A DNA stretch of 64,000 nt from Escherichia coli (GTDB lineage Bacteria > Pseudomonadota > Gammaproteobacteria > Enterobacterales > Enterobacteriaceae): assembly GCF_030013595.1 (NCBI RefSeq), contig NZ_CP122768.1; one strand, 5' to 3'. Positions within the stretch are counted from its first letter, which is position 1. Each line of letters begins with the position of its first letter. The notes below the pieces were generated by a model. The model made no database searches. It saw only the letters and a list, made by a program, of their open reading frames with translations, and was not told the DNA's origin. Of the stretch, positions 17,872 to 22,100 are shown piece after piece. Made by a program: the position numbers and the translations under genes.

Positions 17872-19119
17872 CTACTGATATCTATCACTTTTGAAATCGT
17901 ATGTTCTAGGATCAGCGCCCGGTTTAGGTTGTCCTGCATGTGCGTGAGGGCCAGGAGCCCTAGGATCTGCCGTGTGCTCGACTACAACTTTCTTACGTCC
18001 GTAGGCATCCGTATATTCATAATATCGCCCATGAGACCCTAAATCTTCCGAATATTTATAATTTGTTTGTCCCCTTCTTCTAGGATCATTTCCAACTGTC
18101 CATTGCCTATTAGGTTGCTGTGAACGAGGTATGCCCGCAAGATCTTTTGCTTTATTTAGTGCCTGACGACGGTTTCTTAATTCACCACATTTCAGACCAA
18201 GCGGATCTATCCAGCTTGCTGGATTAGGCGCGTAAGCATACAGGTTCAGCCCGCCCGCCAGCCCTATCGGATCCGTTACCATGAACCGCCCGACATCCGG
18301 ATCATAGTACCTGTGCAGATTGTAGTGCAGCCCCGTTTCCCTGTCGAGGTACTGTCCCTGGTAGCGCAGGTTCTGCTCCACCCCGCCGTGGTCCTTCTCC
18401 TGTATCGTGTTACCCCAGACCTGATACCCCGTCTCCCACACGATTTTCCCGTCGCTGTCCGTCATCTCTTCCGGCGCGCCGTTCACATCCGTGTGAAAAT
18501 ACAGTATCCGGTTCGGGCCCTCTTTGCCCGCCTTATCCACCCGCGCCAGCGGTTCATAACTCCCCGGGTCCCTGTAGATGTACAGGCTGTCTGTTCCCTC
18601 CGGCCTGCTCTCCTGCGCCAGCCGCATTCCGTCCCATAAAAATTTTGTCCGGTTGTACGGTTTACCGTCAGGACTGATGTGCTGTTTTTCCGTCCGCCTC
18701 CCCAGCGCATCGTACACATACCGGTACGTCCCCCGCGCTGTCGTCACTTCCACCATCCGGTGTTCCGCATCATAACGGTAACTCTGCGTGCCGCTCCGCC
18801 CCTCCTTTTCCACCGCACGGCCAAATTCGTCGTAACGGTAGTGCACACCACGGTAAGACATCAGCCGGTTGAACGGCACCACGCTGTTTTCTGCCGTGGC
18901 CCTTTCCCCCGCGCGCCGCGCCAGCAGGTTTCCCGCCGCGTCGTACTGCCAGCTCGCCAGATACCCCTCATCCTCCGAGCGGCACGCCGTGATGCGCCCC
19001 GTGGGGTCGTAGAAGTAATCCGTTTCCCCCCGCCGGCTGTGCCGCGTCTTCAGCAGTTCATCCTCGCCACTGTAGCTGTACTGCCGGTCCGTGAACGTCT
19101 CCGGTACCACCCCGCGCAT
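17872..19119 (-). CDS. Rhs protein, C-terminal segment: YD repeats, DPxGL core end and ~106-aa polymorphic tip; in frame with the upstream Rhs ORF across a TAG
   Basis: YD-repeat units (YRYDEFGRAVEKE, YRYDAEHRMVEV, YVYDALGRRTEK), DPIGLAGG...DPLGL, then KCGELRNRR...GPHAHAGQ...DRYQ. Confidence 0.8.
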   Translation of the reverse strand: MRGVVPETFTDRQYSYSGEDELLKTRHSRRGETDYFYDPTGRITACRSEDEGYLASWQYDAAGNLLARRAGERATAENSVVPFNRLMSYRGVHYRYDEFGRAVEKEGRSGTQSYRYDAEHRMVEVTTARGTYRYVYDALGRRTEKQHISPDGKPYNRTKFLWDGMRLAQESRPEGTDSLYIYRDPGSYEPLARVDKAGKEGPNRILYFHTDVNGAPEEMTDSDGKIVWETGYQVWGNTIQEKDHGGVEQNLRYQGQYLDRETGLHYNLHRYYDPDVGRFMVTDPIGLAGGLNLYAYAPNPASWIDPLGLKCGELRNRRQALNKAKDLAGIPRSQQPNRQWTVGNDPRRRGQTNYKYSEDLGSHGRYYEYTDAYGRKKVVVEHTADPRAPGPHAHAGQPKPGADPRTYDFKSDRYQ

Positions 19120-19167
19120 CCCGCTGTATGTCTCCCTGCGCTTCAGCCGCCCGCCGGGGTCGTAAAG

Positions 19168-22100
19168 CTACCGCGTGCTCAGTCGCCCCTGGCTTCTGAG
19201 CACTTCACGGTGCAGGGCGTCACGTGTGAACTCGCTGATGACCTCCCGGTCCAGATTTATCTGCTGGAGATGGCCGCTGCCGTAGTACAGATGACGCTGC
19301 GTTCTGCCGTCCGGAAAGGTGGTGGCTGTCCGGTTGCTGAGTTCATCGTACTGATGGGTCAGGACGCCCTGCGCCGTCTCCTCAGTCAGCATCCGCCCCA
19401 GTCTGTCGTAACTGAAGCGGATAATCTCCGGTGCGTCTGTTTCCCCGGCATCCGACCGTCGGCGGCGGATTTCCAGTAGCTGGTCTGCCGCATCATGGAC
19501 GTATTCCGTACGGCTATCGGCTGTCTCCTTTGCCGTAAGCCGGCCCGCCGCATCACGTGCCAGCCGATGGCGGATTTCACCGCCCCGGTCCCCGGTGAAC
19601 ACCACTTCCGTGACCGCGTTCAGCGCGTTGTAGCGGTACGTCTGGCGGCAGCCGTCCGGATTTATCTGCTCCGCCAGACGGTCCAGCACATCATGGCGGA
19701 ACCGGTAGCTTTCTCCGTTCTCGTTTGTCAGCGTGACCAGACGCCCGTAAGCATCGTACCCGAATGCCGTCCTGCGCCCCGTCGCGTCCGTCCGGCTGCG
19801 CACCCGGCCCTGCCCGTCCCGCTGCCAGCGCGTTATCCTCCCCATCGGGCTGGTGTACTTCACCAGCCTGCCCGCCGCGTCCGACTGGTAATTCACCGTG
19901 CGGCCGTCCGCCAGTATCACCTCCGTCAGGTGGCCGCTGTCGTCATACCCGTAGCGCGTGCTGTGGCTCTGCGCGTCTGTCATCCGTATCAGCCGCGTGC
20001 GTTCGTCGTAGAACCAGGCCGTCTGCGAGCCGGAACAGTCCGTGTGCCGCATGAGCTGCCCGTCTTCGTTCCACTGAAGGTATTTATTCCCCCCGCGCGC
20101 ATCGGTTATCTGCACCACCTGGCCGTGGCGGTCATACTGATACCGGGTGTTCTGCTGCAGCGGGTCGGTCACCGCAAGAAGATTGCCGCGTTCATCGTAC
20201 TCACAGCACCAGCTGTTCCCCGCCGCGTCCACCTCCGTTTCCGGCTGGTGCCACACCGGGTGCCACTGTGTCTGTGCCACCCGCCCCAGCGGGTCGTGCG
20301 TCTCCGTGATATGCCCCTGCCGGTCATACACATAGCGCCATTTGCCGCCCTGCGCATCGGTCATTCCCAGTAACAGCCGTTCTTCGTCGCTCCAGCGGAA
20401 CGTCGTCACCTGCCCGGCTTCGTCCTGGTACGCCGTCACCTGGTTCTGCGCGTCCCACTGATGATAACGCGTGCGCCCCAGCCCGTCCGTCACGCACAGC
20501 CTGCGTGACGCCAGGCTCCACGCCAGCCGGTACTGTTCACCGCTGTCCGTGTGGTGCCCCGTCACCCGCCACGCTGCGTCATCCGGGCCTTCATACCAGC
20601 CCCACTGGTAATAATACCCTTCGCCGCCCGGCTGGCGGTGCAGGGTCATGCAGTGGTTTTCGTCGTAAGCAAACTCGCGCAGCAGGTGTCCCGTGCTGTC
20701 GTACACGCCGTTCAGGTCGCCGGCCTCGTCATAGCGGTAACGACGCAGCAGTAAAGGAGCCGTCTCAGGGAAATGCTGATAAATCTGTGTCACCCGCCGG
20801 GGATGCGCCGCCAGTTCATAATGCAGACGGATGCACGGACGCTGCTGTTCACCGCTGATTTGCGTGATGCGCCCCAGCTCGTCGTAGTACAGATTCAGAC
20901 AGTTGCTGTTGCGGTCGCCCAGCATTTTCAGCCGCTGGCGCTGCGGGTGATGCGGGTCGGCCTCAAACAGAAAAAACTGCCCGTCATCGCTGCTGATAAG
21001 CCAGTGCCCCTGCTCACCCCGCCTTACCGCCAGTCCTTCGCCGGGGCTGTAAAACCCGCTCCCCGGCAGCACGGCCTCCATATCCAGGCGTCGTCCCATG
21101 CCCGACACAAAGGTCATACAGTTTTCGTCAGCAGTACCCGGCGTGCGCTCGAGGCTGACTTCATACATCACGCTCCAGCCCTGCCCGAACATCCCTTCCG
21201 TGCGGTCGTCACGACTGCTGTACACGCGCTGCCAGTCCAGCGGAAAGTGGCCCGGCAGACTGAAATCGAAGTCATCGTCATCCGCCAGATATTTGGCTCC
21301 GGTGGCGGCATTGACCGGATGCGGAAGGGCACTGATGGCCTTCTGCGTCATCACCCCCATCCCGACACTGGCAGCAAAACAGGCGATTTTAGAAAGCATT
21401 TTGCCCGGGCGAAGAAACATCAGCGCCACAGTTGCCACCAGGGTTATCTGCGACCTGCCGCTTCTGATATCCCTGACCACCAGTAACGGACCGCCAATGC
21501 GGACATCCGGTGACACAAACGCCCCGTTCCCCGGCTCATTCACCACCCAGGCCTCGCAGGTGCAGCGTGCCCCGCTGCGTGCCGCCGGCTGGCTGTTGAT
21601 ACGCACATCCCGCGCGCCTTCCGCGATATATTCCGCTGCGGGCGGTTCATCATCGCCTTTGAACAGATTACTGATGCTGCCAATAACCGCATTCACTCCC
21701 TGAAAGGCGGTTTCCAGCATACCGCCCGGACTCAGCAGGTTAAGGGCCGTTCCCAGAGGGTCATCCAGAAAGGCGGCTTTTTTTTGTGCGAGAAACTGCG
21801 TCAGTGAGGAGGGATGTTTATGGCAGTCGATTTTATCGTCAGGGGTCGGGGTGGAGCCCGGGGCCGCACTGGCCACGGTGGGCTGCCATAGTTCCGACAC
21901 AAAATGTGTCACGCCATCCACCATTTCAGAACGCCCTTCTTCCGTACTGAGCTGGTCATGCAGCGCCCGGGACATCAGCACAGGCCCTGTCACCGGGTTA
22001 ACCGCCAGGGCTATGGCCCCCGCCATTTCCAGATATTCCCCGGCCACATCCCGGAACGTTCTGGCGTCCTCCTGACGCTGCGCTTCTTCCTGTTCCGCCT

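Follow-up and report, generated by a model that had tools for sequence, protein, structure and literature searches.

Does the TAG codon in the middle of an rhs gene of Escherichia coli separate two genes, call for a suppressor, reflect a sequencing error or mark a gene that has recently been lost? The gene lies on the minus strand of a stretch of 64,000 nucleotides (contig NZ_CP122768.1 of assembly GCF_030013595.1), which we refer to as the window, and the initial annotation described it as an Rhs gene divided by an amber codon into two colinear open reading frames (ORFs). We assign a probability of about 0.82 to the answer that this is a real, evolutionarily recent pseudogene at the rhsE locus, hit more than once and disabled by a Gln1112-to-amber nonsense mutation.

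An rhs frame with two amber codons

From an ATG at 22503, the rhs ORF runs for 1111 codons on the minus strand (19171..22503; supported by translation, Pfam and NCBIfam) and then meets a TAG at 19170..19168 (amber 1), which reads cta on the plus strand. Beyond amber 1 the frame is unshifted (...GRLSTR*LYDPGGRLKRRETYSGMRGVVPETF...) and stays open for 431 more codons, 1113–1543 (17875..19167, minus strand), in which translation, NCBIfam and Pfam place the rest of the YD repeats, the Rhs-associated core and most of a Tox-HNH-EHHH toxin domain. The translation thus bears out the earlier description of a 1111-codon ORF, a TAG and a next ORF that continues the YD-repeat core in the same frame. Two details had to be amended: the TAG had been placed at 19165-19167, off by 3 bases, and the strand was missing.

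A six-frame scan of the window looked for single stops flanked on either side by 80 or more open codons. Among the 22 cases found, two were far ahead of the others, namely amber 1 of rhs (1117 and 431 codons on its two sides) and a stop in narZ (1087 and 717 codons); the remaining cases had short flanks, came from neighboring genes sharing a frame or were antisense shadow ORFs of rhs. Three orthologues (L001, L002 and L003) are colinear across the amber 1 site, with 98.6-100% identity in the 70 residues around it, and the split is therefore not a chance juxtaposition of ORFs. The division of rhs at codon 1112 is a real feature. On the opposite strand, the region 18679-21703 (plus) holds several antisense ORFs of 201-292 amino acids (aa), which are probably shadow ORFs of a repeat-rich gene.

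Genome comparisons identified CAG (Gln) as the ancestral codon 1112, converted to TAG by a single C-to-T change on the coding strand, which is the transition that the initial annotation had proposed. The nearest genome, HCP5S3_I2, is 99.9% identical to the window across 43 kb of E. coli chromosome, and a base-by-base comparison gave a coding-strand T in the window and C in HCP5S3_I2 at 19170, that is, TAG versus CAG; codon 1112 is also CAG in the outgroup Res13-Lact-PER13-34. Because both the nearest genome and the outgroup carry CAG, amber 1 is specific to the window lineage. A 71-mer centered on the TAG had no match at 100% identity among 5,426 complete E. coli genomes (best match, 98.6%), and the same 71-mer repaired to CAG was found at 100% identity in 105 complete E. 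coli genomes. Exact 43-mer scans of GTDB representative genomes and JGI metagenomes did not find the TAG allele, and an exact-protein index had no entry for the 1111-aa or 415-aa rhs products. Gln occupies this position in every Rhs copy fetched from the same clade, and the orthologues do not terminate here, being read through as single ORFs of 1548-1559 aa. These results agree with a recent inactivating mutation, the option that the initial annotation had put first.

Deamination at a Dcm site (CCWGG) was considered as the cause of amber 1 and was ruled out, the site being GGCAGCT. As for the kind of stop, rhs is rich in CAG and TGG codons, so that TAG makes up 48% of its single-base nonsense paths and 72% of those that are G:C-to-A:T changes. 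An amber is the expected kind of nonsense mutation in rhs.

A second in-frame amber, overlooked by the initial annotation, lies at codon 1544 (17872..17874, minus strand; amber 2). Genome comparisons show that it arose from AAG (Lys) by a single A-to-T change on the coding strand; codon 1544 is AAG in L001, L003 and L004, and both HCP5S3_I2 and Res13-Lact-PER13-34 have this codon. When the 71-mer around amber 2 was searched, all 71 genomes with this toxin module matched it at 98.6%, and none had amber 2. It was likewise missing from the GTDB representatives, the JGI metagenomes and the exact-protein index. The downstream ORF is thus itself truncated. Amber 2 cuts off the last 16 residues of the protein (lost tail KINDPVTKDHHIYYEN), and translation and orthologue comparison place the stranded last 15 codons (INDPVTKDHHIYYEN) and the ancestral TAG stop at 17824..17871 (minus strand), overlapping the start of the presumed immunity gene. 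A third protein-altering rhs change is specific to the window: R319W (codon 319, AGG to TGG; 21547..21549, minus strand), located by genome comparisons and Pfam in a PAAR-like region, where it turns the Dcm site CCTGG into CCAGG.

The ancestral effector and what the ambers remove

The whole gene spans 22503..17824 on the minus strand and had an ancestral full length of 1559 aa. A prePAAR motif (AARxxDxxxH) is present as AARQGDALLH at residues 7-16, and the N-terminal part also contains a hydrophobic stretch. The PAAR-like region at residues 291-321 is a partial, weak match to Pfam PAAR_motif (E=3.7e-4), and NCBIfam T6SS_PAAR_dom scores the protein at 19.7 bits versus a cut-off of 124. DUF6531 follows at residues 395-473 and YD repeats at 671-1068 in Pfam; the YD-repeat shell was confirmed by TIGR01643 repeats in NCBIfam and by RHS_repeat and RHS in Pfam. 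The Rhs-associated core TIGR03696 covers residues 1360-1437, with DPIGL...DPLGL autoprotease motifs. On the intact L003 sequence, Tox-HNH-EHHH (PF15657) was matched with E=2.2e-8, the match covering positions 2-69 of the 69 in the model and stopping 2 residues short of the C terminus. With these domains, the ancestral gene encodes a one-chain, 1559-aa prePAAR/PAAR-Rhs effector of a type VI secretion system (T6SS), a bacterial contact weapon, with a DPxGL autoprotease plug and a Tox-HNH-EHHH nuclease. In the window, no single uninterrupted ORF joins tip, shell and toxin, TAG codons being present at positions 1112 and 1544. Because of these in-frame stops, we class the gene as a pseudogene of the prePAAR/PAAR-Rhs family and not as a working member.

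In Eag-dependent prePAAR Rhs effectors, the toxin is enclosed by the shell, and toxicity needs two autocleavages (PMC8636562, PMC8765631). The window has the same order of vgrG, eag, rhs and immunity genes as the loci of Photorhabdus laumondii Rhs1-EagR (PMC8636562) and Pseudomonas protegens RhsA (PMC8765631), and its rhs gene is like theirs in the prePAAR motif, the hydrophobic N-terminal segment, the candidate PAAR-like region, the YD-repeat shell, the DPxGL plug and the toxin tip. However, its ORF is interrupted by the two ambers, so that the full protein is not encoded, and the toxin type is Tox-HNH-EHHH, not Tre23 or another of those studied. WP_195714911.1 of E. coli O169:H41 Res13-Lact-PER13-34 (1559 aa) has the same locus, architecture, toxin tail and position of an overlapping immunity gene, and differs from the window gene in being a single ORF with CAG at 1112 and AAG at 1544.

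Translation of the window gene would stop at codon 1112, inside the shell and ∼250 residues before the plug. The product would be an incomplete shell with no plug, autoprotease, toxin or closed cage, and for this reason the effector would not be deliverable. Products of downstream starts, such as the ATG at 19119, would have no secretion tip and would carry a crippled, truncated nuclease.

How much of the nuclease depends on the region behind amber 2 was judged from family conservation, because a search by sequence for a solved-structure homologue of the toxin that could place the catalytic residues returned none (best E=0.12, spurious). Among 1.8 billion representative proteins searched, 139 were relatives, and most of these end exactly at the ancestral stop. 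In the alignment, 89 of 93 family representatives keep both DHH histidines, H1551 and H1552, and the E-H and H-x-H positions are conserved in 121-123 of 124-126 aligned relatives. The E-H and H-x-H positions are encoded before amber 2 and the final H-H behind it, so these residues are not on one chain. Amber 2 alone would therefore be expected to inactivate the nuclease.

Could the two ORFs instead be a functional pair, both translated, with re-initiation at ATG 19119 and assembly of the chains into a cocoon like that of TcB and TcC? An ATG does lie 16 codons past the stop, with a GGAG 11 nucleotides upstream of it, and two-protein Rhs cocoons exist, the Tc-toxin shell being built from the two polypeptides TcB and TcC (PMC8765631). 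TcB and TcC are, however, conserved separate genes with their own starts, whereas the window split comes from a point mutation seen only here, within a repeat and not at a domain border. The relatives are all fused single ORFs, with no conserved, separately initiated pair among them, and, because the amber 1 allele is unique, there has been no time for selection on the split. Moreover, the downstream piece has an amber of its own, which removes the conserved catalytic histidines. We give a functional split almost no credence.

Decay weighed against artefact and readthrough

Relative to HCP5S3_I2 and the outgroup, 14 changes in 43 kb are specific to the window, 6 of them in rhs and 3 in narZ. 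The six in rhs are the two ambers, R319W and three synonymous changes. The three in narZ (5776-9517, plus strand), a gene that is multiply broken, are an amber at Q1043 (CAG to TAG, 8901-8903, plus strand), an additional A in an A-run near the 3′ end (9507, plus strand), which joins the tail to the frame of narH, and P878L (CCAGG to CTAGG at 8407, plus strand), in which the substitution hits the inner C of a Dcm motif. Apart from rhs and narZ, hicB is the one gene between 1.3 and 44.5 kb with a disabling difference, and it lies where colinearity ends. The four disabling lesions of rhs and narZ thus all fall within these two genes. The 71-mer with the narZ amber occurs unchanged in 204 complete E. 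coli genomes, where PGAP annotates narZ as having an "internal stop"; this amber is certainly a genuine, widespread allele.

These differences bear directly on the explanation that the rhs stops are a sequencing or assembly artefact, in which the true codon would be CAG at 1112, and perhaps AAG at 1544, altered by an error of base calling, polishing or paralogue cross-mapping. The gene has rhs paralogues, the median number of matching places in a genome being 2-3, and the amber 1 allele was found nowhere else. Nevertheless, T was present in 0 of 226 paralogous or orthologous places, and since none of them carries it, cross-mapping cannot have created it; gene conversion from a paralogue is rejected as its source on the same ground. 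Methylated motifs can mislead long-read base-callers, and three window-specific changes are in Dcm motifs (8407, 21549 and 29010), in addition to one homopolymer indel, the A-run at 9507. Amber 1 itself, however, is outside Dcm and Dam motifs, and the window-specific rate of ∼3 changes per 10 kb is comparable to that on the sister strain's own branch. Random base-call errors would scatter, and would not place all four disabling changes in two genes; the clustering of lesions in dead genes argues for real decay. The narZ amber, for its part, is independently confirmed by the 204 assemblies. We consider an artefact unlikely.

A further explanation is readthrough, by which an amber suppressor tRNA (a supE-type one would restore Gln at 1112) or a leaky UAG-C context would yield a full-length, active effector. 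The strain would then be a natural amber suppressor, for example with a supE-like tRNA-Gln(CUA), in which the TAG codons at Q1112 and K1544 of rhs and Q1043 of narZ are partly decoded and tolerated, leaving some production of the effector, at a low level. Natural coliforms with amber suppressors have been reported. Three new in-frame TAG codons have arisen within 43 kb in this lineage, and two of these are CAG-to-TAG changes, which a Gln-inserting suppressor would restore exactly; both have C as the next base, and UAG followed by C is a weak termination context in E. coli. However, a scan for tRNA genes, including suppressors, found none within the 64-kb window, and the narZ frameshift is beyond repair by any suppressor. 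The rhs stop is conserved in no relative, 105 genomes having the CAG 71-mer and none the TAG, and amber is the commonest nonsense outcome in rhs in any case. A full-length protein would also need two successive readthroughs. Basal leakage is ∼1% or less per site, which over two sites leaves ∼1 product in 10,000 or fewer. Suppression, whether by leakage or in a suppressor strain, is very unlikely, and even when it is taken jointly with a two-chain cocoon the two remain quite improbable. The sequencing error and the suppression that the initial annotation had kept as alternatives can now both be considered unlikely.

Several observations nevertheless weigh against the reading as ordinary decay. 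The narZ amber of the 204 genomes lies on a haplotype that is ∼3% divergent and differs from the window at the flanking positions 8834 and 8990 (8866-8936 compared with L009, E. coli M217), and strains with the window's own narZ haplotype have CAG. The recurrence of this amber on a different haplotype hints at recurrent mutation or a hot spot, or at a conversion tract of <156 bp. The narZ and rhs CAG-to-TAG sites also have a common context, G-CAG-CTY-TA. Finally, three new in-frame TAG codons among 11 window-specific coding single-nucleotide polymorphisms (SNPs) give a binomial P of ∼0.001-0.004 under a naive neutral model. This excess disappears when each gene is conditioned as already dead, because one extra nonsense mutation among six further SNPs is then left. 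The proposal that three ambers are too many for chance is likewise weakened by the share of TAG among the rhs nonsense paths (48-72%).

The reading that we favor is therefore recent, real decay: after one lesion had inactivated rhs, the other changes would have accumulated neutrally. Decay at the rhsE locus has precedent, both in the K-12 rhsE pseudogene and in a 1-nucleotide deletion in the toxin domain of the sister strains. K-12 rhsE (b1456), which the initial annotation had correctly called degenerate, is annotated as a pseudogene at the same chromosomal locus, between ansP/yncE and ydcC/yddH/nhoA, and both it and the window gene are inactivated Rhs genes. They differ in that only 2 kb of a gene of the classical RhsA-E core type remains in K-12 rhsE, which was inactivated by truncation, whereas the window rhs is a full-length PAAR-Rhs gene of another clade, inactivated by point mutations; the two are only ∼31% identical around the amber 1 site. 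Both the effector class and the proneness of the locus to decay are well known; the window gene, a pseudogene with two ambers, is a case of ordinary gene decay with no special coding trick. The appropriate annotation is a single rhs pseudogene that contains two internal stops, instead of two genes, and the strain counts as one that lacks this effector and keeps the presumed immunity gene. At the rhsE hotspot, this would be another instance in which a T6SS effector is lost and the immunity to it kept, and the case gains interest only if the genome carries an amber suppressor.

The presumed immunity gene, the toxin module and other regions

The genes of the locus follow the order vgrG, a DcrB/DUF1795-family gene, rhs, a 144-aa ORF, symE, an ISAs1 transposase gene, yddH, nhoA and yddE, which places rhs at the position of K-12 rhsE. 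The T6SS spike gene vgrG is intact (664 aa; 23025..25019, minus strand), as judged by Pfam Phage_GPD, Phage_base_V and Gp5_trimer_C and by the L001 annotation "type VI secretion system Vgr family protein." The DcrB/DUF1795-family gene, also intact (150 aa; 22522..22974, minus strand), occupies the position of an Eag-type chaperone gene; it matches Pfam DcrB (PF08786, E=1.1e-18) and is called "DcrB-related protein" in L001, and its product had no match in NCBIfam or PADLOC.

The 144-aa ORF (17400..17834, minus strand) is intact and shows no differences from the sister strain. Its product had no family match in NCBIfam or PADLOC, and it is therefore presumed to be the immunity gene from its position, overlapping the rhs 3′ end as in the relatives. 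If so, it would still protect the cell against kin firing the same toxin. A promoter scan found one consensus-level site inside rhs (18347..18319, minus strand), which might drive the immunity gene; the site is not evidence of function.

The sister-strain deletion mentioned above is present in the closest strains, HCP5S3_I2 and LCP30S3_I5, as CCC to CC at window positions 17948-17950 (L001 ∼7520) again in the toxin domain. The frameshift falls ahead of the H-x-H motif, and in RefSeq the product, 1548 aa long and ending in an unrelated tail, is annotated as an intact protein. If it is not an assembly error, this deletion suggests that the toxin is dispensable or disfavored in this lineage.

Elsewhere, as in strain 104 (L004, 5374-6241), the toxin-immunity module is mostly found as a short, orphan cassette in a different Rhs/ISAs1 locus, close to ybgA-phrB, where it is annotated as "HNH/endonuclease VII fold putative polymorphic toxin" (147 aa). 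Among the records listed, the module is annotated within a full-length Rhs protein in only five genomes (H66-H70). Its predominance as an orphan cassette fits the swapping of toxin tips by recombination. Within rhs, the segment 18454-18646 contains eight differences in 193 bp that are specific to HCP5S3_I2 and look like a short gene-conversion tract from another rhs copy.

Among the window-specific changes outside rhs and narZ, the substitution at 29010 affects the outer C of a CCTGG site in yncE. Three of the 13 window-specific SNPs are in CCWGG sites (8407, 21549 and 29010), a number that at first sight looks high. In HCP5S3_I2, an IS200/IS605 tnpA gene lies downstream of an ompC-like porin gene (window 1269-1275 versus L005 1621-2079), in a stretch of ∼0.7 kb that has no counterpart in the window. 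At the other end, colinearity with HCP5S3_I2 stops within hicB, and the remainder of the window (44574-64000) is prophage-like. It contains ORFs of 1258 and 784 aa, and its matches are annotated as tail tip, tail fiber, recombinase and DEAD/DEAH helicase proteins. This part is ∼94% identical to its best E. coli matches, and a related element is found beside ydcR in strain MEI003.

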